Origin: a virus | Lineage: Duplodnaviria > Heunggongvirae > Uroviricota > Caudoviricetes | Direction: 5' to 3' (one strand) | Length of the DNA stretch: 11,347 bases | IMG/VR virus record: IMGVR_UViG_2617270980_000009 | Position numbers and translations under genes: made by a program | Notes under the pieces: model-generated | Seen by the model: only the letters and a program-made list of their open reading frames with translations | What the model was told of the DNA's origin: nothing | The model's database searches: none | In this document: positions 1 to 11,347 of the stretch, piece by piece | How the letters are laid out: each line of letters starts with the position of its first letter | How positions within the stretch are numbered: position 1 is the stretch's first letter

Positions 1-261
1 TGAGTTTTTTAAATGGCGGAAAATCGTGTTGAGGCCAACGCCCATAATGCGGGCGGTTGCCCGGCATCCAACGCCATTCATGGCCATATCAATGATTTTC
101 TGGTGCGTACCGGGTTGAGAAGCGGTGTAAGTGAACTGCAGTTGCCATGTTTTACGGCAGTGAGAGCAGAGATAGCGCTGATGTCCGGCAGTGCTTTTGC
201 CGTTACGCACCACCCCGTCAGTAGCTGAACAGGAGGGACAGCTGATAGAAACAGAAGCCAC
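1..261 (-). CDS. insA: IS1 InsA transposase-regulator, 3'-truncated by the window edge; GTG start at 259-261 (minus strand)
   Basis: Minus-strand translation from the GTG gives [86 protein letters not shown], which matches IS1 InsA from memory. It is absent from the supplied ORF track, presumably because of the GTG start and because it runs off the window. Confidence 0.85.
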
Positions 262-316
262 TGGAGCACCTCAAAAACACCATCATACACTAAATCAGTA
301 AGTTGGCAGCATCACC
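1..316 (-). mobile_element. IS1: IS1 insertion sequence, partial: the IRL-proximal 316 bp; the rest lies beyond the left window edge
   Basis: Reverse complement of 253-316 reads GGTGATGCTGCCAACTTACTGATTTAGTGTATGATGGTGTTTTTGAGGTGCTCCAGTGGCTTCT, which matches the IS1 left terminal inverted repeat and insA leader as I recall them. The minus strand of 1-261 translates to an InsA-like protein. The element boundary is at 316; unrelated flank starts at 317 (atatgcggt...). Confidence 0.9.
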
Positions 317-483
317 ATATGCGGTTATCGTATTGGCCTGTCCATCCTTTGTCGTTATGTTCCTGCCTAACCGGCTCCGTCACAAAAAGTACCGTGATGC
401 TTTTTTTGAATTTCCGCAAAACACATATTTATCAGCGGTTGTTATTCTGACTCTGTTTAATTCAGAAACAGGCAGAAAAGACG

Positions 484-2538
484 ATGTCAGACTCCAAGTG
501 GAAAATGCTCTCCGCCATGCCCGGAGAGTTTTCAGTCAAGGTTGCCGGTGGCACGGTGGCATTTATTGAAAGCCCTTTCCGCCCTTCGGGTAATAAAGGG
601 GGGATCACCTTCGCAGACTGCGTGATCCGCTTCAGCACGAAAGAGCCATTATGGGTAATGCCGGTATCCGGTAATCCCAGTGCAGAAATCACCAGTTCAG
701 GCGTGACTGGCATCATTCCAATCACATCTGACGTGGCCGGAACGCTCACGCCCTCCGACTGGAATGCACCGGATAACGCCGGGCCTTCCGGTAGCACGAA
801 TGGCAGCAGTTCAGAGCCGGAATATTACTTTGTTGTCATTCTCGCGGGTCAGTCAAATGGCATGGCCTACGGCGAGGGGCTGCCGTTACCGGATTCGTTT
901 GACCGCCCGGACCCACGCATTAAGCAACTGGCACGCCGCAGTACGGTAACGCCCAACGGTACGTCGTGTACATACAACGACATCATTCCGGCAGACCACT
1001 GCCTGCATGATGTTCAGGATATGAGCGGGATAAACCACCCGAAAGCTGATCTGGCAAAAGGCCAGTACGGGACTGTCGGTCAGGGGTTGCATATTGCCAA
1101 AAAACTGCTTCCCTATATCCCACAGAATGCGGGGATACTTCTGGTGCCCTGTTGTCGTGGCGGGGCAGCATTCACCACTGGAGCCGACGGCTCATTCAGT
1201 GAGGCCAGCGGTGCTTCCGCTGATTCTTCACGCTGGGGGGCCGGTAAACCTCTGTATCAGGACCTGGTAAGCCGCACCAAAGTCGCGCTGGCGAAAAACC
1301 CGAAAAACAAACTTCTGGCTGTGGTCTGGATGCAGGGAGAGGCAGACCTTGCCTCAGGAAGCCAGCAGCATAATAGTTTATTCACGGCCATGGTTCAGCA
1401 GTTCAGAACTGACCTGGCTCCGCTTGCTGCGCAGTGCGTGAGTGGAAATGCCACCACGGTGCCGTGGATTTGCGGTGATACCACGTATTACTGGAAAAAC
1501 GCTGGCACCGATAAATATGAGGCAGTATACGGTGGCTACAAAGGCAAGGAAGCACAGAAAATTTTCTTTGTACCGTTCCTGACGGATGAGAATGGACAGA
1601 GCACGCCAACGAATGCTCCGGCGGAAGACCCGGATATTGTGGCTGTCGGGTATTACGGTGCAGCATCCCGAACCCAGGGCAGTTTTGTTTCGACACAGCG
1701 TGACAGCCATTTCAGCTCATGGGCACGCAGGGGCGTCATTTCAGACCGTCTGGCCTCAGCTATTATGCTCCATGCAGGGCGCACGGCTGAACTGATGCGC
1801 GGGCAGACCGTGACACCACCGGATGAGAAGCCGTCACCTGATACACCATCAAAACCGTCCACGCCACCCGCAGACACCACGACGATGAGTACGCTATTTG
1901 CTTACCGGGCATCTGAGTCTGAAGGACGGTTGACACCACAGGGTTGGGCTGCCGGAGGTGGCAAGGCTCAAATCGTGGATGATGCCGGAGCTAGCGGGGG
2001 TAAGGCAATGAAACTGACCAAGGAAACAGGAAGAGCCCCCTGGTACCTTGAGCATGATGCTGGTAATGGTGCGGACCTGCTGGGTAAAGGTGGTCTTGTC
2101 AGTTGTCGTTTTAAACTCGATGGCGCGCTTACGGCTAATCAGTATGCACTGGCGCTGTACTGGCCGGTTTCTGCCCTGCCGCAAGGGGTTACTCTGGAAG
2201 GAAATGCCGGTCATAACCTGCTGGCATCGTTCTACGTACAGAGCGATGCCACAGACCTTAACGTGATGTATCACAAAGGAAACACGGCGCAGAACACGAA
2301 GCTGGGGTCATTCGGCGCATTTAATAACGAATGGCATACGCTGGGCTTCCGTTTTGCCGGTAACAACAGTATTGAGGTGACGCCGGTCATTGATGGTAAG
2401 GACGGGACACCATTCATGCTGTCGCAGTCTCCGGTCGGCACGTTTACGGCAGACAAGTTGCGCGTGACCGATATCACTAAAAATGCGACTTACCCGGTAC
2501 TGATTGACAGTATCGTGGTGGAAGTGAATAACGCGTAA
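484..2538 (+). CDS. SGNH/DUF303-family esterase, prophage NanS-p-like sialate (9-O-acetyl) O-acetylesterase, with a Pro/Thr-rich linker and a C-terminal ~230-aa beta-rich (lectin-like?) domain
   Basis: 684-aa ORF. A stop in the same frame at 448-450 makes the ATG at 484 the first available start; a weak SD (cagg/gaaaag) lies upstream. It carries a GQSN esterase motif (VVILAGQSNGMAYGEG) and downstream LLAVVWMQGEAD, typical of the sialate O-acetylesterase (SASA/DUF303) family. Linker TPPDEKPSPDTPSKPSTPPADTTT sits at about aa 440-465. The family assignment is from recall, not a search. Confidence 0.6.
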   Translation: MSDSKWKMLSAMPGEFSVKVAGGTVAFIESPFRPSGNKGGITFADCVIRFSTKEPLWVMPVSGNPSAEITSSGVTGIIPITSDVAGTLTPSDWNAPDNAGPSGSTNGSSSEPEYYFVVILAGQSNGMAYGEGLPLPDSFDRPDPRIKQLARRSTVTPNGTSCTYNDIIPADHCLHDVQDMSGINHPKADLAKGQYGTVGQGLHIAKKLLPYIPQNAGILLVPCCRGGAAFTTGADGSFSEASGASADSSRWGAGKPLYQDLVSRTKVALAKNPKNKLLAVVWMQGEADLASGSQQHNSLFTAMVQQFRTDLAPLAAQCVSGNATTVPWICGDTTYYWKNAGTDKYEAVYGGYKGKEAQKIFFVPFLTDENGQSTPTNAPAEDPDIVAVGYYGAASRTQGSFVSTQRDSHFSSWARRGVISDRLASAIMLHAGRTAELMRGQTVTPPDEKPSPDTPSKPSTPPADTTTMSTLFAYRASESEGRLTPQGWAAGGGKAQIVDDAGASGGKAMKLTKETGRAPWYLEHDAGNGADLLGKGGLVSCRFKLDGALTANQYALALYWPVSALPQGVTLEGNAGHNLLASFYVQSDATDLNVMYHKGNTAQNTKLGSFGAFNNEWHTLGFRFAGNNSIEVTPVIDGKDGTPFMLSQSPVGTFTADKLRVTDITKNATYPVLIDSIVVEVNNA

Positions 2539-2553
2539 GCAGGATAAAAAAAT

Positions 2554-2588
2554 CCCGCCGGTCAAAGAGCCATTTGTTGACTGGCGGG
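2554..2588. terminator. Hairpin (12-bp stem with one G-U pair, 11-nt loop) immediately 3' of the esterase gene; the T-tract is on the minus-strand side
   Basis: cccgccggtcaa (2554-2565) pairs with ttgactggcggg (2577-2588). On the plus strand it is preceded by aaaaaaa (2546-2552) and followed by non-U-rich sequence, so as an intrinsic terminator it reads better for leftward (minus-strand) transcription. Confidence 0.35.
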
Positions 2589-2703
2589 GGATATTCCAAA
2601 CCCATTAAGGAAAGCTACAACCTCTGACAAAGAAGACCATTATGTACGCGGTTACTTTTTAGCTGAAAACTGTTTCTGTAGTCAATATCAAAGGTAAGGT
2701 TAT

Positions 2704-2886
2704 ATGACATTTGTTCATACGATGCTGCTTTATTTCTGCACTGTGGTCAGTGCGTTATATCTGGTGAGCGGTGGTTATAAGGCCATCAGAAATTATGTTC
2801 GCCGCAAAATTGATGACGCAGCAGCTGAAAAGCTCAGTAAAACAGCGCAGGCAACTCCGCTCCCAAAAGACCCGACCCAGCCCTGA
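2704..2886 (+). CDS. Hypothetical small protein (60 aa) with one N-terminal hydrophobic helix and a charged Pro-rich tail
   Basis: ATG at 2704 preceded by aaggtaaggt (2691-2700). N-terminal MLLYFCTVVSALYLVSGG is hydrophobic. No family recognised. Confidence 0.45.
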   Translation: MTFVHTMLLYFCTVVSALYLVSGGYKAIRNYVRRKIDDAAAEKLSKTAQATPLPKDPTQP

Positions 2887-2921
2887 TTGCAGGGCTGTAT
2901 TCCCACATAAGGAGGATATAC

Positions 2922-3176
2922 ATGCCAGAGATTAAAGGCACCGTCACTGAAGTCCTGGTAAAACAGGCACTGTATTCCGGTGAAGTAAATAAATTACTGA
3001 AAGCGCAGGTCCGCAAGGATTTTGAGGCACAAATCGACACTTACGTTGATGAAGTGCTGGCAAAACTTATTGGGCCAGCAGTTGCGGCCAGTGATGCTGA
3101 TAATGAGCCGAAAACCGACGCGCAGCCAGAGCAACCAGACCCGGCTCAGCCCGGAACTGACAGTACCATGATGTAA
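2922..3176 (+). CDS. Hypothetical acidic protein (84 aa) with a Pro/Gln/Asp-rich C-terminus
   Basis: Consensus SD aaggagg (2909-2915) sits 6 nt upstream of ATG 2922. Followed by a short palindrome aaaccgg...ccggttt (3184-3208). No family recognised. Confidence 0.5.
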   Translation: MPEIKGTVTEVLVKQALYSGEVNKLLKAQVRKDFEAQIDTYVDEVLAKLIGPAVAASDADNEPKTDAQPEQPDPAQPGTDSTMM

Positions 3177-3343
3177 CAATACAAACCGGTGGTGTCCTCT
3201 GCCGGTTTGACACTAATGAAAACATCTTTGCCGCTATCCAGCCATATGTAATCGCTGGATAGTATTTCGTATTCAGAAATATAGCTGCTTATGGAGCAGT
3301 CAATCCTGCTTCCCCATCCGGGCAGGCAAATGAACCGGTATCA

Positions 3344-3637
3344 TTAGTCCGATTCACGCTTTTGTAGAATCGTTCCCAGAATGCTATACAGCTCATTAGC
3401 CTGTTGCTCCATCATTGAGACGGAGGCTATACGGTGCAAAGTGATTTCAGGAGGTGGCACACCTCCATCTTCTTGCTGTGGAGGAAAAACATAAGATTTA
3501 ATAAAAAAGTTGAAGCATATGAACTCTCCCGCACTCGAACTGTATTTGCAGGCATCTGAATAATCGGAAAAATAATCATTATAGATTTCCGCATTTTCAA
3601 TCATTTTTCGATTTCTCGTCGTTACATGATTGTCCAT
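3344..3637 (-). CDS. Hypothetical protein (97 aa) in an AT-rich island, transcribed divergently from the com/mom-like pair
   Basis: Minus-strand ORF with SD aagagg (reverse complement of 3643-3648) 5 nt upstream of its ATG (3637-3635). Codon usage is AT-rich and unlike the flanking lambdoid genes. No family recognised. Confidence 0.5.
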   Translation of the reverse strand: MDNHVTTRNRKMIENAEIYNDYFSDYSDACKYSSSAGEFICFNFFIKSYVFPPQQEDGGVPPPEITLHRIASVSMMEQQANELYSILGTILQKRESD

Positions 3638-3760
3638 AGCAGCCTCTTACGCTGGCAATTAACCAATTGACTTCTATAAATTAGTTGATTTGTTTGCTTT
3701 GCGGTATTCAAATGTACAATCATTCAGCACTTATGCGTTACAGCACCGTTTAAAATTAGT

Positions 3761-3850
3761 GATCAAACTCATAAATTTTCGCTAATGACATTTCGTGTTA
3801 TTTGTTGTATCAATTAAATAAATCAAATCGATCGTTTTTGTCGATCGATT
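3761..3850. promoter_or_regulatory. Putative regulatory region upstream of com: perfect inverted repeat AATCGATCG-n7-CGATCGATT (3826-3850) and three GATC (Dam) sites at 3761, 3830 and 3843
   Basis: Read directly from the sequence. Both arms contain the palindrome CGATCG. The region lies in the 256-bp AT-rich divergent intergenic space between the 97-aa ORF and com. Confidence 0.4.
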
Positions 3851-3893
3851 GAGTGATAAAGATATCAACAACAAAGCAGGAGGTTATGCGGCC

Positions 3894-4094
3894 ATGTATC
3901 GAAACATACGGTGCCGACATTGTAACAAGCTACTGGCACGAGCCAGCTTCAGTTATCTGGAAGTCAAATGTCCGCGCTGTAAAACCCTCAATCAAATCAC
4001 ATCTCAGAGCGCCACAGAGCACCCCACATACACAAGGAAATCCTGTCGTGGGGAACAGAAAGCAAGTTACATCCCGTATCATCAGCACGCCTGA
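3894..4094 (+). CDS. com: Com-like zinc-finger translational activator (phage Mu Com homolog), 66 aa
   Basis: [45 protein letters not shown]... aligns with Mu Com as I recall it (MKSIRCKNCNKLLFKADSFDHIEIRCPRCKRHII...EHPTEK), including the CxxC...CPRC zinc-binding cysteines. SD aggagg (3878-3883) is 10 nt upstream of ATG 3894. The track ORF start at 3849 is rejected because it has no SD. Confidence 0.7.
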
Positions 4095-4785
4095 ACTTAT
4101 TCACTATAACGACAATATCGTCGGTTATGGCTCCCGTGAGTTACGGGTTGAGACAATAAGTTGCTGGCTGGCCCGGCTGGTCGTCGTCAATAAACATTAC
4201 AGCCATCGTTTCGTAAATAATTCCTACCTTCATCTGGGCATATTTTCAGAACGGGAGCTGGTTGGCGTAATGCAATGGGGTTATGCCCTTAATCCAAACA
4301 ATGGTGCACGCGTCGTAACTGGCACGCAGAACCGCGAATATATGGAGCTTAACCGGTTATGGCTGCATGACTGTATGCCGAGAAACTCCGAATCAAGGGC
4401 AATCAGTTACGCGCTCAAACTAATCAGACAACTTTATCCGCAGGTGCAGTGGGTTCAGTCGTTTGCAGATGAGCGTTGTGGCTGTCTTGGTGTCGTGTAC
4501 CAGGCAAGCAATTTTGATTATGTAGGCAGTCATGAAACAACATTCTATGAACTTGATGGCGAGTGGTATCACGAGATTTGCAAGAATGCAATCAAACGAG
4601 GAGGACAGCGAGGTGAACATCTGCGGGCTAATATCGACAGAGCCAGTGTTCATAAATTCCGTCAGTTTCGTTACATCCGGTTTCTGGACAAGAGAGCCAG
4701 AAAACGCCTTAACACAAAGCTATTCAAAGTCCAGCCTTACCCAAAACCACAAACAGTTAAAACTGGTTTGAAAGAGAGTGAATGA
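4048..4785 (+). CDS. mom: Mom-like DNA modification protein (phage Mu Mom homolog, adenine-modifying anti-restriction function); start inferred as GTG 4048, overlapping the 3' end of com
   Basis: Long ORF in frame 1 directly overlapping a Com homolog, as in Mu. There is no in-frame ATG between 3886 and about codon 137, whereas GTG 4048 has an upstream AGGA (4035-4038) and gives ~245 aa, close to Mu Mom (~231 aa). Assignment rests mainly on synteny with com and on size; I cannot verify Mom sequence motifs from memory. Confidence 0.55.
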
Positions 4786-5701
4786 ACGCTTAAAAACTCA
4801 TTCTAAAACTCAAAAGAAAAGCGCCGATTTAGTATCAAATAAGTTGCGTATCGGCGTTTTTCAGCGGTATCAAATGAAATGCAAATCGGTATCAAAAAAA
4901 TCGCCGCGCTATAGTATCCGTGAGAACGACGACGGCACGTATGCCATCACCGCCGTGCAGCATGTACCGGAAAAAGAGGCCATCGTGGATAACGGGGCGC
5001 ACTTTGACGGCGACCAGAGCGGCACGGTGAATGGTGTCACGCCGCCAGCGGTGCAGCACCTGACCGCCGAAGTCACCGCAGACAGCGGGGAATATCAGGT
5101 GCTGGCGCGCTGGGACACGCCGAAGGTGGTGAAGGGCGTGAACTTCCTGCTCCGTCTGACCGTAACAGCGGATGACGGCAGTGAGCGGCTGGTCAGCACG
5201 GCCCGGACGACGGAAACCACATACCGCTTCAGGCAACTGGCGCTGGGGCGTTACACGCTGACGGTCCGGGCGGTAAATGTGTGGGGACAGCAGGGCGATC
5301 CGGCGTCGGTATCGTTCCGGATTGCCGCCCCGGCAGCGCCGTCGCGGATTGAGCTGACGCCGGGCTATTTTCAGATAACTGCCACGCCGCATCTTGCGGT
5401 TTATGATCCGACGGTACAGTTTGAGTTCTGGTTCTCGGAAACGCGGATTACCGATATCAGGCAGGTTGAAACCACAGCCCGCTACCTTGGCACGGGACTG
5501 TACTGGATAGCCGCCAGTATCAATATCAAACCGGGCCATGATTATTATTTTTACGTTCGCAGTGTGAACACCGTTGGCAAATCGGCATTCGTGGAGGCCG
5601 TCGGTCAGCCGAGTGATGATGCAGAAGGCTACCTGGATTTTTTCAAAGGCAAGATACCGAATCCCATCTCGGTAAAGAGCTGCTGGAAAAAGTTGATCTG
5701 A
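4778..5701 (+). pseudogene. J: Lambda J-like host specificity (central tail fibre) gene, internal fragment: 5'-truncated remnant (J homology starts near 4907) ending at a frameshift
   Basis: From about codon 44 the translation ([35 protein letters not shown]...YLDFFKGK) matches the C-terminal third of lambda J as I recall it. The first ~43 codons are AT-rich junction sequence. A 1-nt loss near 5654-5657 (ata-ccg where a functional gene would read ata-acc-gaa) shifts the frame and gives a premature stop at 5699-5701. Confidence 0.8.
4821..4861 (+). terminator. Possible rho-independent terminator after the mom-like gene
   Basis: gcgccgat (4821-4828) pairs with atcggcg (4850-4856), followed by ttttt (4857-4861). 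The 21-nt loop is long, so confidence is low. Confidence 0.35.
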
Positions 5702-5802
5702 CGGAGGATAACGCCAGCAGACTGGATGAGTTCTCAAAAGACTGGAAGGACGCGAACGATACAGAAAGTTCAGGTTGATACAAATAATAACCTGAACAGC
5801 AT

Positions 5803-6630
5803 GTGGGCTGTGAAGCTGAGCAGACCAAAGACGGAAAACATTATATTGCGGGTATCGGTGCCGGTATTGAGAACACCCCCGACGGCATGCAGAGTCAGGT
5901 GCTGCTGGCGGCAGACAGGATTGCGATGATTAATCCTGCGAATGGCAACACAAAGCCGATGTTTGTTGGTCAGGGCGATCAGATATTCATGAACGACGTG
6001 TTCCTGAAGCGCCTGACAGCCCCCACCATTACCAGCGGTGGCAGTCCTCCGGTATTTTCCCTGACACCAGACGGGCGACTGACGGCGAAAAATGCGGATA
6101 TCAGTGGCAGTGTGAATGCGAACGCCGGGACGCTAAACAACGTCACGATAAATGAGAACTGTACGATTAAGGGCATGCTGGAGGCGACCCAGGTCAGAGG
6201 CGATTTCGTTAAAACAGTATCCAAATCATTCCCGAAGAAGGCTGGTACGTGGGGTAACACGGAAACACCAAACGGGACGGTTACAGTCACTATCAGCGAT
6301 GATCATAACTTTGACCGTCAAATCATTATTCCGCCCATTATTTTTAACGGTGTGGCGTATGACGATCCTGGGAGCGGAAATAACCCCGGAGGCACGAGAT
6401 ACACAGGTTATGGTTTTGAAGTTCGCAAAAACGGCGTATTAATCGCATCCAGAGAAACTAAAGGGGCCATTCCCGGTAGTTACAGTGCAGTTATTGATAT
6501 GCCTAGTGGTGGTGGAAGCGTCACTCTGGAGTTTAAGATTTTCCAGAAAGGCAATCAGGGGGCAGGCAATATCACCGACTGTACGGTGATTGTGACCAAA
6601 AAGGCTGCTTCCGGCATCAGTATTCGTTGA
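5803..6630 (+). pseudogene. J: Lambda J-like host specificity gene, C-terminal receptor-binding portion, separated from the upstream fragment by frameshifts
   Basis: Translation [14 protein letters not shown]...[37 protein letters not shown]...GISIR matches the lambda J C-terminus from memory. J-like coding between 5659 and 5820 continues in other frames: [34 protein letters not shown] in frame 1 up to the stop at 5776-5778, then [18 protein letters not shown] in frame 2. Confidence 0.8.
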
Positions 6631-6651
6631 AATTGTTATAACCCCAATAAA

Positions 6652-6677
6652 GGGCGTCAGGAATGACGCCTTTTTTA
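6652..6677 (+). terminator. Rho-independent terminator between the J remnant and lom
   Basis: gggcgtca (6652-6659), loop ggaa, tgacgcc(t) (6664-6671), followed by tttttta. Confidence 0.6.
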
Positions 6678-6700
6678 TTGCAGAAAAGCGAGAGGTAATT

Positions 6701-7300
6701 ATGCGTAAACTTTATGCCGCCATTTTGTCCGCAGCCATTTGTCTGGCCGTATCCGGTGCGCCTGCATGGGCATCTGAACATCAGTCCACGCTGAGCGCGG
6801 GGTATCTTCATGCCTCGACGAACGTTCCCGGCAGCGATGATCTTAACGGGATTAACGTGAAATACCGTTATGAGTTTACGGACACACTGGGGCTGGTGAC
6901 GTCATTCAGCTATGCAGGAGACAAGAATCGCCAGCTTACCCGTTACAGCGATACCCGCTGGCATGAAGATTCCGTGCGTAACCGCTGGTTCAGCGTGATG
7001 GTGGGGCCGTCTGTGCGCGTGAATGAATGGTTCAGCGCGTATGCGATGGCGGGTATGGCTTACAGCCGTGTGTCGACTTTCTCCGGGGATTATCTCCGCG
7101 TAACTGACAACAAGGGGAAAACGCACGACGTGCTGACCGGAAGTGATGACGGTCGCCACAGCAACACGTCTCTGGCGTGGGGAGCTGGCGTGCAGTTTAA
7201 CCCGACCGAATCCGTGGCCATTGATATTGCTTATGAAGGCTCCGGCAGTGGCGACTGGCGCACTGACGGTTTCATCGTGGGTGTCGGTTATAAGTTCTGA
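6701..7300 (+). CDS. lom: Lom outer-membrane protein (Ail/OmpX/PagC family beta-barrel), 199 aa with signal peptide
   Basis: Signal peptide [24 protein letters not shown]. Motifs [12 protein letters not shown] and the C-terminal [24 protein letters not shown] match lambda Lom from memory. SD agagg is 5 nt upstream. Position between J and stf is as in lambda. Confidence 0.9.
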
Positions 7301-7326
7301 TTAGCCAGGTAACACAGTGTTATGAC

Positions 7327-7354
7327 AGCCCGCCTGTTCAGGCGGGCTTTTTTG
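7327..7354 (+). terminator. Rho-independent terminator downstream of lom
   Basis: agcccgcctg (7327-7336), loop ttc, caggcgggct (7339-7348), followed by tttttt. Confidence 0.6.
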
Positions 7355-7364
7355 TGGGGGGAAT

Positions 7365-10300
7365 ATGGCAGTAAAGATTTCAGGTGTACTGAAAGACGGC
7401 ACAGGAAAACCGGTACAGAACTGCACAATCCAGCTGAAAGCAAAACGTAACAGCACCGCGGTGGTGGTGAACACGCTGGCCTCAGAAAATCCGGATGAAG
7501 CCGGGCGTTACAGCATGGACGTTGAGTACGGTCAGTACAGCGTTATTCTGTTGGTGGAAGGATTCCCGCCGTCACATGCCGGGACCATCACCGTGTATGA
7601 AGATTCCCGACCCGGTACGCTGAATGATTTTCTCGGTGCCATGACGGAGGATGATGCCCGTCCGGAGGCTCTGCGCCGTTTTGAACTGATGGTGGAAGAG
7701 GTGGCGCGTAACGCGTCCGCGGTGGCACAGAACACGGCAGCCGCGAAGAAGTCAGCCGGCGATGCCGGCACATCTGCCCGTGAGGCGGCAACCCATGCGA
7801 CTGATGCTGCAGGCTCAGCACGCGCAGCCAGCACGTCAGCCGGACAGGCCGCTTCGTCGGCTCAGTCAGCGTCTTCCAGCGCAGGAACGGCATCAACAAA
7901 GGCCACTGAAGCGGAAAAAAGTGCTGCCGCTGCAGAGTCCTCAAAAAGCGCGGCAGCTACCAGTGCCAGTGCCGCGAAAACGTCAGAAACGAATGCTGCA
8001 GCGTCACAACAATCAGCAGCCACTTCTGCATCCACCGCGACTACGAAAGCGTCAGAAGCTGCCACCTCAGCCCGGGATGCGTCGGCTTCAAAAGAGGCGG
8101 CAAAATCATCAGAAACGAACGCATCCTCGAGCGCCAGTAGCGCAGCTTCCTCGGCAACGGCGGCAGCAAATTCCGCGAAGGCGGCAAAAACGTCCGAGAC
8201 GAACGCCAGGTCTTCTGAGACGGCAGCGGGACAGAGCGCCTCAGCTGCGGCAGGCTCAAAAACAGCGGCTGCGTCGTCTGCCAGTGCCGCGTCAACAAGT
8301 GCCGGGCAGGCCTCAGCCAGTGCCATCGCCGCCGGAAAATCGGCAGAAAGCGCCGCATCATCCGCTTCAACAGCCACAACGAAGGCTGGCGAAGCCACTG
8401 AACAGGCCAGCGCAGCAGCGAGGTCTGCTTCCGCAGCGAAGACATCCGAAACGAACGCGAAAGCGTCGGAAACCAGCGCAGAATCCTCAAAAACGGCAGC
8501 CGCATCGTCCGCCAGTTCGGCAGCGTCATCGGCATCATCTGCGTCTGCTTCAAAAGATGAGGCGACCAGACAGGCGTCAGCAGCGAAGGGCAGCGCCACG
8601 ACGGCATCCACGAAAGCAACAGAGGCGGCAGGCAGTGCGACGGCTGCATCTCAGAGCAAAACTGCTGCCGAATCTGCTGCGACTCGTGCAGAAGCTGCCG
8701 CTGATCGTGCTGAAGAGATTGCCGGTGCAGTTGCGATGGAAGACGCAAGCCTTACAACTAAAGGTGTTGTGAAACTTAGCAGTGCTGTCGATAGCACCAG
8801 TGAATCTTTAGCCGCGACACCAAAAGCAGTTAAGACCGCATATGATAATGCTGAAAAACGACTACAGAAGGATCAGAATGGTGCTGATATCCCCGACAAG
8901 GGCCGCTTCCTGAATAACATTAATGTTTACAGCAAAGGTGAAGTGGATCAGAAAAAGGGGATGCGATACGTTGTGGTAAATGCCCCGGCGGGTGTCCAGG
9001 AAGGTAAATATTATCCGTTAGTGATAAAAAGGAATGACAGCCATCGGGCATCCCGCGTTGTCATTTCAACGCCAAGTCGCACAGCTAATCACAGAATGAA
9101 TAACTGTGAGTTTAATGGTTTTGTTTGCGCAGGCGGCTGGACGGACCGGGGTAGCTATGCCTGTGGTATGTTCTGGGCTTATTCATCATCGGAACGCGCT
9201 ATTCATTCCATTCTGATGAGTAATAAAGGCGATACCGTAGACAGCGTATTCTATATAGAAGGTGGGGCATTTCCCGTAGAGGTCTTTTTAGAAGAAGGAC
9301 TTTCTGTTACTGCTCCTGCTTCTGATTATGTTGTTGCTGAAACGACTTATAAATTTGGCGCAACTGATCCTTATTCTGAATCAGTTGCGGTAAATTTAAT
9401 TTTAGATTTTAAACAAGGTAATGGATTTTATAGTTCGTATCCTGTTTTGAGTAAGTCAGACATTAGCGGTAATAAGGTTTACGCTAATGATGAAGTTATT
9501 GTCCGTAGTCAGAATGCGTTAAGGATGATTGCTGGCGATTACGGTGTCATATGGCGAAATGATGGAGCAAATACTTACTTGCTCATGACTGATAAAGGCG
9601 ACCAGTACGGTGGCTGGAACGGTCTTCGACCATTTGCAGTAAATAACGCAACAGGTGAAGTGACGATCAATACACCACTTAATTCTCCAAAAGGGGTTAA
9701 GGGGAACTCTGATACAGCTACGAAACTTCAGACTGCAAGAAAAATATCCGGTGTTCCATTTGATGGCTCTACTGATATCACTTTAACCGCCGCGCATGTT
9801 GCCGCTTTCGCAAGAAGAGCAACAGGGTCATATGCTGATGCTGATGGCGGCGTGCCGTGGAATGCTGAATCTGGTGCTTATAATGTAACTAGAACGGGCG
9901 ACAGCTATATTCTGGTTAACTTCTATACCGGAGTCGGAAGTTGCCGGACCTTGCAGATGAAGGCGCATTACAGAAATGGTGGTCTGTTCTACCGTTCTTC
10001 AAGAGACGGTTATGGTTTTGAGGAAGACTGGGCAGAAGTTTATACCTCGAAAAATCTTCCACCAGAAAGCTACCCAGTCGGCGCACCAATCCCGTGGCCA
10101 TCAGATACCGTTCCGTCTGGTTATGCTCTGATGCAGGGGCAGACTTTTGACAAATCTGCCTACCCGAAACTTGCAGCCGCTTATCCGTCAGGCGTGATCC
10201 CTGATATGCGTGGCTGGACGATTAAGGGCAAGCCCGCCAGTGGTCGTGCCGTATTGTCTCAGGAACAGGACGGCATAAAATCGCATACCCACAGCGCCAG

Positions 10301-10763
10301 CGCATCCAGTACGGATTTGGGGACGAAAACCACATCGTCGTTTGATTACGGAACCAAATCCACGAATAACACCGGGGCGCATACCCATAGTATTAGCGGG
10401 ACCGCAAATAGTGCCGGCGCGCACCAACACAAGAGTTCCGGTGCATTTGGTGGCACGAACACGAGCATTTTCCCTAATGGTTATACCGCGATTTCAAATC
10501 CAAGCGCGGGGATTATGAGCACAACAAGCGGTAGTGGCCAGACTCGTAATGCAGGGAAGACATCATCAGATGGTGCTCATACCCACTCGCTGTCCGGCAC
10601 TGCTGCAAGCGCAGGCGCACATGCACATACTGTCGGTATTGGTGCTCATACGCACTCCGTTGCGATTGGCTCACATGGACACACCATCACCGTTAACGCT
10701 GCGGGTAACGCGGAAAACACCGTCAAAAACATCGCATTTAACTATATTGTGAGGCTTGCATAA
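7365..10763 (+). CDS. stf: Side tail fibre protein Stf (lambda Stf / T4 gp37-like), 1132 aa, mosaic with an extended Ala/Ser-rich repeat region and an inserted low-GC central domain
   Basis: N-terminus [26 protein letters not shown]...[16 protein letters not shown] and C-terminus ...[31 protein letters not shown] match lambda Stf from memory. His-x-His repeats (GAHTHS, GAHAHT, GAHTHS, GSHGHT) are present near the C-terminus. The stop overlaps the tfa start (taATG at 10761-10765). Confidence 0.9.
7730..8700 (+). repeat. Low-complexity, GC-rich Ala/Ser/Thr repeat region inside stf, with recurring AAKTSETNA-type units
   Basis: Motifs such as [20 protein letters not shown] and KTAAASSAS recur in the translation. 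The same repetitive DNA yields long spurious ORFs in other frames and on the minus strand. Confidence 0.6.
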
Positions 10764-11347
10764 TGGCATTCAGAATGAGTGAACAAGCACGGACCATAAA
10801 AATTTATAATCTGCTGGCCGGAACTAATGAATTTATTGGTGAAGGTGACGCATATATTCCGCCTCATACAGGTCTGCCAGCAAACAGTACCGATATTGCA
10901 CCACCAGATATTCCGGCAGGCTTCGTGGCTGTTTTCAACAGTGATGAGGCATCGTGGCATCTCGTTGAAGACCATCGGGGTAAAACGGTTTATGACGTGG
11001 CTTCCGGCGACGCGTTATTTATTTCTGAACTCGGTCCGTTACCGGAAAATGTTACCTGGTTGTCGCCGGGAGGGGAATATCAGAAGTGGAACGGCACAGC
11101 CTGGGTGAATGATACGGAAGCAGAAAAACTGTTCCGGATCCGGGAGGCAGAAGAAACAAAAAACAGCCTGATGCAGGTAGCCAGTGAGCATATTGCGCCA
11201 CTTCAGGATGCTGTAGATCTGGAAATCGCAACGGAGGAAGAAACCTTGTTGCTGGAAGCCTGGAAAAAGTATCGGGTGTTGCTGAACCGTGTTAATACAA
11301 CAACTGCACCGGATATTGAATGGCCAACAGTACCCATTATCGAATAG
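10763..11347 (+). CDS. tfa: Tail fibre assembly chaperone Tfa, 194 aa; the stop codon is the last three bases of the window
   Basis: [79 protein letters not shown]... is near-identical to lambda Tfa as I recall it. Translationally coupled to stf. Confidence 0.9.

Follow-up and report, generated by a model that had tools for sequence, protein, structure and literature searches.

How did AT-rich DNA carrying relatives of the phage Mu genes com and mom come to adjoin a lambda-like tail-tip gene, J, that has lost its 5' part? This question is raised by the IMG/VR virus record IMGVR_UViG_2617270980_000009 (Caudoviricetes), whose whole analysed stretch of 11,347 nucleotides (nt) we refer to as the window. 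The original prediction had read positions 3200-4905 as a foreign cassette inserted, with deletion, into a prophage remnant, next to an esterase-like gene taken to be lambdoid. We found that, as judged from its sequence, the DNA at positions 317-4913 is the surviving right-end fragment of a Mu-like transposable prophage of the Escherichia coli O157 Sp18 type. We consider it highly probable that an Sp18-type element inserted into J of a Qin-type lambdoid prophage and was later largely deleted. Foreign DNA and a degraded prophage were therefore correctly suspected, and a deletion is very likely, but the foreign element is not a 1.7-kb cassette bounded near 3200.

The identity and extent of the element follow from its intact relatives. 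Strain JE86-ST02 has an intact Mu-like prophage of 38,238 bp in citF, and positions 317-4913 match the 4.6 kb at the right end of this prophage over 100% of their length, with 99.9% identity. The prophage carries the repressor gene, ner, MuA, MuB, gam and mor, the lysis, head, tail and tfa genes, and then the DUF6645 gene and its neighbours through to com-mom. In strain DLI.5a, a prophage in bglJ ends on the right with the same block; it encodes a repressor, a Ner-like protein, a Mu transposase, a MuB-like ATPase, Gam, Mor and an invertase, along with lysis and tail-fibre genes. Further Mu-like prophages, in bglJ and in the lambdoid genes L and J, have the same right arm after gin, and O157:H7 strains carry this phage type inside lambdoid L or J genes. 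Immediately to the right of position 317, positions 331-400 resemble the 3' end of a gin-type recombinase gene, with the alignment to the recombinase 3' end of the bglJ copy (locus L004) starting at 331. From there, the remnant runs through the esterase-like gene, DUF1378, DUF826, a variable slot with the open reading frame orf97, the mom control region, com, mom and the right-end repeats, as far as 4913. The window contains neither a MuA-type transposase nor a MuB ATPase, both of which are present in the 99.9%-identical intact relative and in the bglJ copy. It contains a Mu-like right end, Com, Mom and part of an IS1 insertion sequence (IS), but neither an intact transposable phage nor an intact J.

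The right boundary of this DNA is decisive for how it arrived. We queried positions 4500-5300 against 5,426 complete E. coli genomes, the collection to which the genome counts below refer. Positions 4500-4913 were found in many genomes at 95-100% identity, and the shared sequence always ended at 4913 or a few chance bases beyond. More than ten different genes adjoined this end, including bglJ, bcsA, citF, flgL, a diguanylate cyclase gene, appC, ldcC and the phage genes for terminase, portal, L and J. In six independent junctions that were read directly, …ATCGCCGCGCTATA was common to all and the sequences diverged thereafter. Because one fixed end adjoins unrelated genes in many genomes, position 4913 is the exact terminus of a randomly inserting transposable phage, and the depositors of LC727895 likewise annotated an "inserted Mu-like phage" that ends at the same base.

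The terminus also carries repeated motifs. Three (A/G)GTATCAAA repeats, at 4831-4839, 4866-4874 and 4888-4896, are putative transposase-binding sites and recall the R1-R3 sites of Mu. In intact copies, TTTGATACCGA lies 18-28 nt from the tip at both termini in inverted orientation, the left end reading TGTAACCAGGTGAATCATTTGATACCGA… and the right end, reverse-complemented, TATAGCGCGGCGATTTTTTTGATACCGA…. The family ends in TA-3' (…GCGCTATA), where Mu ends in CA-3'; this was seen at 23843/43214 of locus L004, at 5291/43528 of locus L006 (reverse complement) and at 4913 of the window. Two intact copies are flanked by duplications of an apparent 4 bp, GTAC in bglJ and TTCG in citF, and 4 bp is also the length annotated in LC727895, while the target-site duplication of Mu is 5 bp. 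A 5-bp duplication, with the phage ending …CTAT, was considered and rejected, because all six independent insertions have the same final A, a base at which the flanks in bglJ disagree.

Across the boundary, window position 4913 corresponds by megablast to lambda position 17227, the first base of J codon 575, and J proper starts at 4914. The abrupt start of J homology that had been placed near 4907 is therefore real, with the alignment beginning at 4913. The extent of the loss had been put at roughly 700 codons, or two-thirds of the gene, and is smaller, at 574 of 1132 codons (51%). A complete J comprises about 1130 amino acids (aa), with an N-terminal tip-assembly part and a C-terminal part with Ig and receptor-binding regions; only codon 575 onward is found here. 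This half is in addition frameshifted at about 5650-5830, as tblastn of intact J places aa 575-871 at 4913-5830 and aa 817-1131 at 5638-6624 in different frames. Because the right junction is an exact transposition terminus, J was split by Mu-type transposition and not replaced through a deleting insertion. Capsid, tail and lysis genes are indeed absent between the esterase-like gene and J, as had been noted, and a separate deletion on the left side, associated with IS1, best accounts for the loss of 5' J and of the tail genes.

On that left side, the window opens with one end of an IS1 element, with its terminal inverted repeat. Positions 1-316 are 100% identical to an IS1 copy, annotated as IS1 family transposase, in locus L001 of strain 600029 (NZ_CM128582.1), which is the sole genome of the 5,426 with the same mom-J junction and which differs from window positions 1-5600 by five mismatches. 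In strain 600029, an IS1 in the same orientation meets the Mu-like DNA 56 nt further left (L001 19317-19372). These 56 nt run contiguously in the intact phage, and this points to a small deletion, of 56 nt, next to IS1 in the window's lineage. On the far side of its IS1, strain 600029 has a truncated ydfR, a holin gene and the remainder of a Qin-type prophage, with dicB, dicA, hokD, rem and ydfU lying upstream and tfaQ, pinQ, ydfK and ydfJ' downstream; this far flank has no similarity to Mu-like DNA.

The simplest history, which we propose, has three steps. A Mu-like phage would first have transposed into codon 575 of J in a resident Qin-type lambdoid prophage. A deletion, whose endpoint is now IS1, would then have taken the left ~33.6 kb of the Mu-like phage, and with it the repressor, transposase A/B, Mor/C-type activator, lysis, head and tail genes. 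On the evidence of the one related genome, the same deletion would also have removed half of J, from its 5' end, together with the head and tail genes of the lambdoid prophage. Lastly, the further 56-nt deletion next to IS1 would have occurred in the window's lineage.

An account without any large deletion is improbable, but it is the best of the alternatives. Here, IS1 would have inserted into a full Mu-like prophage, with 5' J and the head and tail genes of the lambdoid prophage still intact ~34 kb leftward. Such an account is compatible with a window that starts inside IS1, and with an IS1 position 56 nt off that of strain 600029, so that the two junctions are not identical. However, near-identical strain 600029 (five mismatches in 5.3 kb), the only sharer of the mom-J junction, has its same-orientation IS1 within those 56 nt and has non-Mu Qin lysis DNA beyond it, and a 56-nt deletion adjacent to IS1 is the simplest link between that strain and the window. 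Moreover, no complete genome had the reciprocal junction of J with the Mu-like left end, sought by megablast with a chimeric 600-nt query built on the lambda J sequence. Nor was the window's exact IS1-Mu junction found in any of the complete E. coli genomes (0 matches), and an exact 33-nt junction pattern had 0 matches in a species-representative genome collection.

Several points weigh against our own reading of transposition into J followed by a large deletion. The search for the reciprocal junction used the lambda J sequence and megablast, which a diverged 5' J allele would escape. The window begins within IS1, so the far side of that element lies outside it, as do the left end and the target-site duplication of the Mu-like phage, and the deletion is inferred from one related strain in which the IS1 junction is 56 nt apart. 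The TA-3' end and apparent 4-bp duplication are unlike the CA-3' end and 5 bp of Mu, and the transposition chemistry of the Sp18-type family is assumed via homology. Finally, expression and activity of com-mom in the remnant can be judged from sequence only.

The AT-richness of positions 3200-4905, from which the idea of a cassette had started, was borne out by a sliding profile of guanine-cytosine (GC) content and by segment counts, which gave 42.7% GC as compared with 52.2% for 1-3199 and 52.5% for 4906-11347, a clear break. Only 0.12% of all 1706-nt segments of the sequence had lower GC, with the minimum beginning at 3212. Inside the interval, composition is patchy: 39.8% in orf97, the 97-aa minus-strand frame that, like the com-mom pair, had been correctly placed there; 34.4% in the intergenic DNA at 3638-3893; 48.8% in com; 46.3% in mom; and 36.7% in the terminal 128 nt. 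The intact 38.2-kb Mu-like phage has 53.6% GC overall, but its last 1.7 kb has a GC fraction of 0.443, near its minimum of 0.438. As this end of the intact phage is equally low in GC, the AT-richness is native to the Mu-like right end and requires no separate acquisition of 3200-4905. The interval is contiguous with the Mu-like phage and native to it, rather than distinct in composition from the element that embeds it as an island would be, and the 579-bp slot at 3206-3784 is the only part that is mosaic between phages.

These results leave very little room for a compact AT-rich cassette of orf97, com and mom that arrived at ~3200-4905 through illegitimate recombination and deleted 5' J and the tail genes beside a lambdoid esterase gene. 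The fall in GC at ~3200 agrees with it, and homology to O157-type phages does break off at position 3205; the boundary suspected near 3200 is thus a true mosaic boundary, but an internal one, since the foreign element spans 317-4913. The esterase-like gene, DUF1378, DUF826, orf97, com and mom form one block that is 99.9% identical to an intact Mu-like prophage, the low GC belongs to the phage end, and on the right the DNA stops at a transposable-phage terminus seen at many unrelated loci. In addition, the order holin-ydfR'-IS1-esterase in strain 600029 differs from the lambdoid order.

The esterase-like gene deserves separate comment, as its assignment to the lambdoid prophage proved mistaken. 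The gene lies inside 317-4913, and in Mu-like prophages it is placed between gin/tfa and com-mom. An esterase-DUF1378 module does exist in the late regions of lambdoid Shiga toxin (Stx) phages: many of them carry a SASA-esterase/DUF1378 module after stx, with which positions 813-2763 share ~68% nucleotide identity, and this likeness to a nanS-p-type module explains why the gene had been taken for lambdoid. The gene is a paralogue of its nanS-p-type counterpart in Stx lambdoid phages, and the likeness of the modules implies past exchange between Mu-like and Stx lambdoid phages. We also considered esterase-DUF1378-DUF826 as a lambdoid segment with a junction at ~3200 and rejected it, as the block is contiguous with gin/tfa and with com-mom in several Mu-like prophages.

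A functional hybrid, in which a lambdoid phage captured com-mom as an anti-restriction module beside a shortened J, could appeal to the intact com and mom and to an open reading frame (4778-5701) that crosses the phage end and joins J in frame at codon 575, but it is effectively refuted by a J that lacks its N-terminal 574 codons and is frameshifted in the rest, and it is further contradicted by a window without head, tail or lysis genes, by the strain 600029 locus being a decayed Qin remnant with several IS elements, and by a junction that occurs in no phage record.

Table 1. Features of the window, from the IS1 end to the lambdoid right arm (strand given as + or -; a point marks features without a strand).
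Feature	Positions	Strand	Evidence and remarks
Terminal 316 nt of IS1	1-316	-	Ends …GGCAGCATCACC; adjoins Mu-like DNA and marks the left truncation point
First Mu-like DNA after IS1	317-483	+	Between the tail-fibre assembly/invertase region and the esterase-like gene; JE86-ST02 match starts at 317
Esterase-like cargo gene, 684 aa	484-2538	+	Pfam DUF6645 (7.4e-68) and SASA (4.7e-13; sialate-O-acetylesterase-type domain)
DUF1378 small protein gene, cargo	2704-2886	+	Pfam 5.4e-35; same position in intact Mu-like prophages
DUF826 small protein gene, cargo	2922-3176	+	Pfam 1.2e-14; same position in intact Mu-like prophages
Accessory slot, phage-variable, core of the AT-rich interval	3206-3784	.	GC 0.394; between DUF826 and the mom control region
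orf97, orphan 97-aa protein	3344-3637	-	Open reading frame; homologues in E. coli/Shigella only
Perfect 9-bp inverted repeat	3826-3850	.	AATCGATCG-N7-CGATCGATT; two Dam GATC sites (3830, 3843); just upstream of com
com, 66-aa zinc ribbon	3894-4094	+	Pfam Zn_ribbon_Com (PF10122), 7.5e-13
Predicted mRNA hairpin CCCCAC…GUGGGG	4022-4053	+	3' arm holds the mom GUG start (4048-4050); minimum free energy fold
mom, 245 aa, intact	4048-4785	+	Pfam Mom (PF25680), 7.8e-78, profile 1-202 of 202
Right end (attR) of Mu-like phage	4786-4913	+	Ends …ATCGCCGCGCTATA-3'; three (A/G)GTATCAAA repeats
J', 3' half of tail-tip gene J, pseudogene	4914-6630	+	Pfam Ig_J, Ig_J_second, Phage_Tail_Tip, Ig_GpJ_C
Qin-type lambdoid right arm	6701-11347	+	lom 6701-7300 (Ail_Lom, 1.4e-119); stf 7365-10763; start of tfa 10763-11347

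Within the Mu-like remnant, we examined the com-mom pair (Table 1). In Mu, Com is a translational activator of mom and Mom has an anti-restriction role, its product 6-NcmdA being an adenine N6-carbamoylmethyl modification. Com of the window is 45% identical to Mu Com, with C7, C10, C26 and C29 all aligned, and com overlaps the start of mom by 47 nt, an arrangement also found in Mu. Mom of the window shares 78% identity with Mu Mom and matches its solved structure (PDB 8bv8) at 2.4e-123; the gene has no mismatch to that of strain 600029, where the protein is annotated as WP_000528246.1, and the same protein is found in intact prophages. Mu Mom transfers glycine from Gly-tRNA(Gly) to the N6 of adenine in duplex DNA, and the rearranged product, 6-NcmdA, blocks restriction (PMC13219725). 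The residues reported as essential or important, W48, H58, Y59, R111, S124, D149, R151, Y159 and W181 in Mu numbering (PMC13219725), are aligned and identical in the window (R111 and S124 are its R103 and S116). Both genes are intact, and all known catalytic residues of Mom are kept.

The control region upstream of com also has counterparts in Mu. The palindrome at 3826-3850 is a candidate operator or methylation switch of the mom operon. The gin-com interval of Mu contains three GATC sites and has the string ATCAATTAAAT…CGATCG in common with the window, and the Mu mom promoter is controlled by Dam methylation of such sites and by the late activator C (PMC4461284, PMC3378877). The predicted hairpin at the mom start resembles the Mu translation-inhibition structure in position alone, a weak argument, as the folding z-score of the surrounding 86-nt segment was just -1.08 and not significant. 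Because the Mor/C-family activator gene lies in the deleted part of the Mu-like phage, com-mom in the stump is probably silent unless a co-resident Mu-like phage provides the late activator. The slot sequence that contains orf97 occurs at two or three places in some genomes. Two of these are in strain 600029, so that this strain has at least one further copy of a Mu-like phage, and such a copy could act in trans on the stump.

What follows com appears to be a swappable gene. In LC727895, in which a Mu-like phage lies in a Stx1a phage, positions 4232-5483 of locus L002 carry com followed by a 350-aa C5-cytosine DNA methylase (PF00145, 2.1e-42) and no mom.

Between DUF826 and the mom control region, the accessory slot varies among phages. 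Against O157-type and LC727895-type Mu-like phages, similarity ends at 3205 and restarts at 3785, with other small genes occupying the slot there; the allele with orf97 was present in 18 of the 5,426 genomes. The orf97 product had no match in Pfam, PHROGs, PADLOC or NCBIfam, and a large protein search returned 14 relatives, all unnamed and from E. coli/Shigella, at 78-99% identity. An AlphaFold2 model built on a 7-sequence alignment was unusable (predicted local distance difference test score, pLDDT, 50.7; predicted template modelling score, pTM, 0.31). The RefSeq homologue is 86 aa long and starts at an internal Met, a difference that concerns window positions 3604-3637. We prefer the 97-aa start, since it is preceded by an AAGAGG Shine-Dalgarno sequence and since the internal Met is not conserved, being replaced by Thr in P0010, the most divergent orf97 homologue. 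From its position and its preserved open frame, orf97 might encode an unrecognised accessory factor (for example in defence, counter-defence or superinfection exclusion) retained beside a helper-switchable com-mom, although we regard this as rather unlikely. Rfam at gathering thresholds gave nothing in 3200-4905, and in promoter and terminator scans of 3100-5000, promoter-like sites were fewer than in shuffled controls and neither orf97 nor com had a convincing candidate.

The closest known systems are the Sp18-type Mu-like prophages themselves (O157 Sakai Sp18, FRIK804 Φ804-3 and the JE86-ST02 citF prophage), whose insertion sites are strain-specific (PMC7430833). They have the same order of esterase-like gene, DUF1378, DUF826, slot, com, mom and right end, and the same terminus …GCGCTATA, and the O157 copies are ~95% identical to the window from 3785 to the terminus. 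In comparison, the window retains only the last 4.6 kb, capped by IS1, and has lost the transposase, repressor, late activator and structural genes; the O157 copies carry a 154-aa gene in the slot where the window carries orf97. The arrangement esterase-like gene to com-mom does occur in a complete phage, an observation that counts against the original prediction on its own terms, but in a Mu-like one, and the mom-J junction does not, so that this refutation is only half complete.

Mu itself, with its right end of gin-com-mom-attR, resembles the window in the overlap of com and mom, the GATC cluster upstream of com, repeated end motifs and essentially random targets. In contrast to the ~100 bp between gin and com in Mu, the window's family has ~3.4 kb of cargo there (esterase-like gene, DUF1378, DUF826 and slot). 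The two GATC sites of the window lie within a perfect palindrome near com, whereas the three of Mu are further upstream. The end repeats are of GATACC type with a TA-3' tip, and intact relatives show an apparent 4-bp duplication, whereas Mu has CGAAA-type repeats and CA-3'.

Two GenBank records, LC727895 and LC727881, describe a Mu-like phage inside a Stx-converting lambdoid phage, with the same right-end sequence and annotated terminus. Their insertions are full length (~39 kb) and at other sites, whereas the window has a 4.6-kb stump in J, and LC727895 has the C5-cytosine methylase in place of the mom found here. The lambdoid part resembles Qin and related Rac/e14-type cryptic remnants, with J'-lom-stf-tfa followed in strain 600029 by pinQ-ydfK-ydfJ', multiple IS elements and truncated late genes. 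Unlike other Qin-type remnants, it has a Mu-like com-mom stump fused to J, as does 1 of the 5,426 genomes.

The kind of event seen here is already known and belongs to ordinary prophage decay. The locus should be annotated as a J pseudogene joined to the stump of the right end of a Mu-like prophage of the Sp18 type, and not as a novel island or lambdoid cassette. It offers a clean case of one prophage disabled by the transposition of another and then eroded in association with an IS, and it indicates that such a stump can keep an intact com-mom with every known catalytic residue of Mom. For those who work on Mu, the TA-3' terminus, the apparent 4-bp duplication and the swappable module after com may be of interest.

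Further observations concern J and the lambdoid right arm. The frame at 4778-5701 begins with a GTG at 4778, runs through the Mu-like end into J and stops via the J frameshift; this read-through is probably accidental. Compared with strain 600029, positions 5638-5830 show a 28-nt and several 1-nt indels with dense mismatches, as in a mosaic J allele. The central to C-terminal part of stf (8846-10038) has no match in strain 600029, the closest relative, and is probably a swapped receptor-binding segment. A second low-GC patch of the window, with 37-38% GC, lies inside stf at 9151-9600. The sole Rfam match in the window, IS009 (RF02111) at 11106-11304 on the plus strand (230.8 bits), lies inside tfa.

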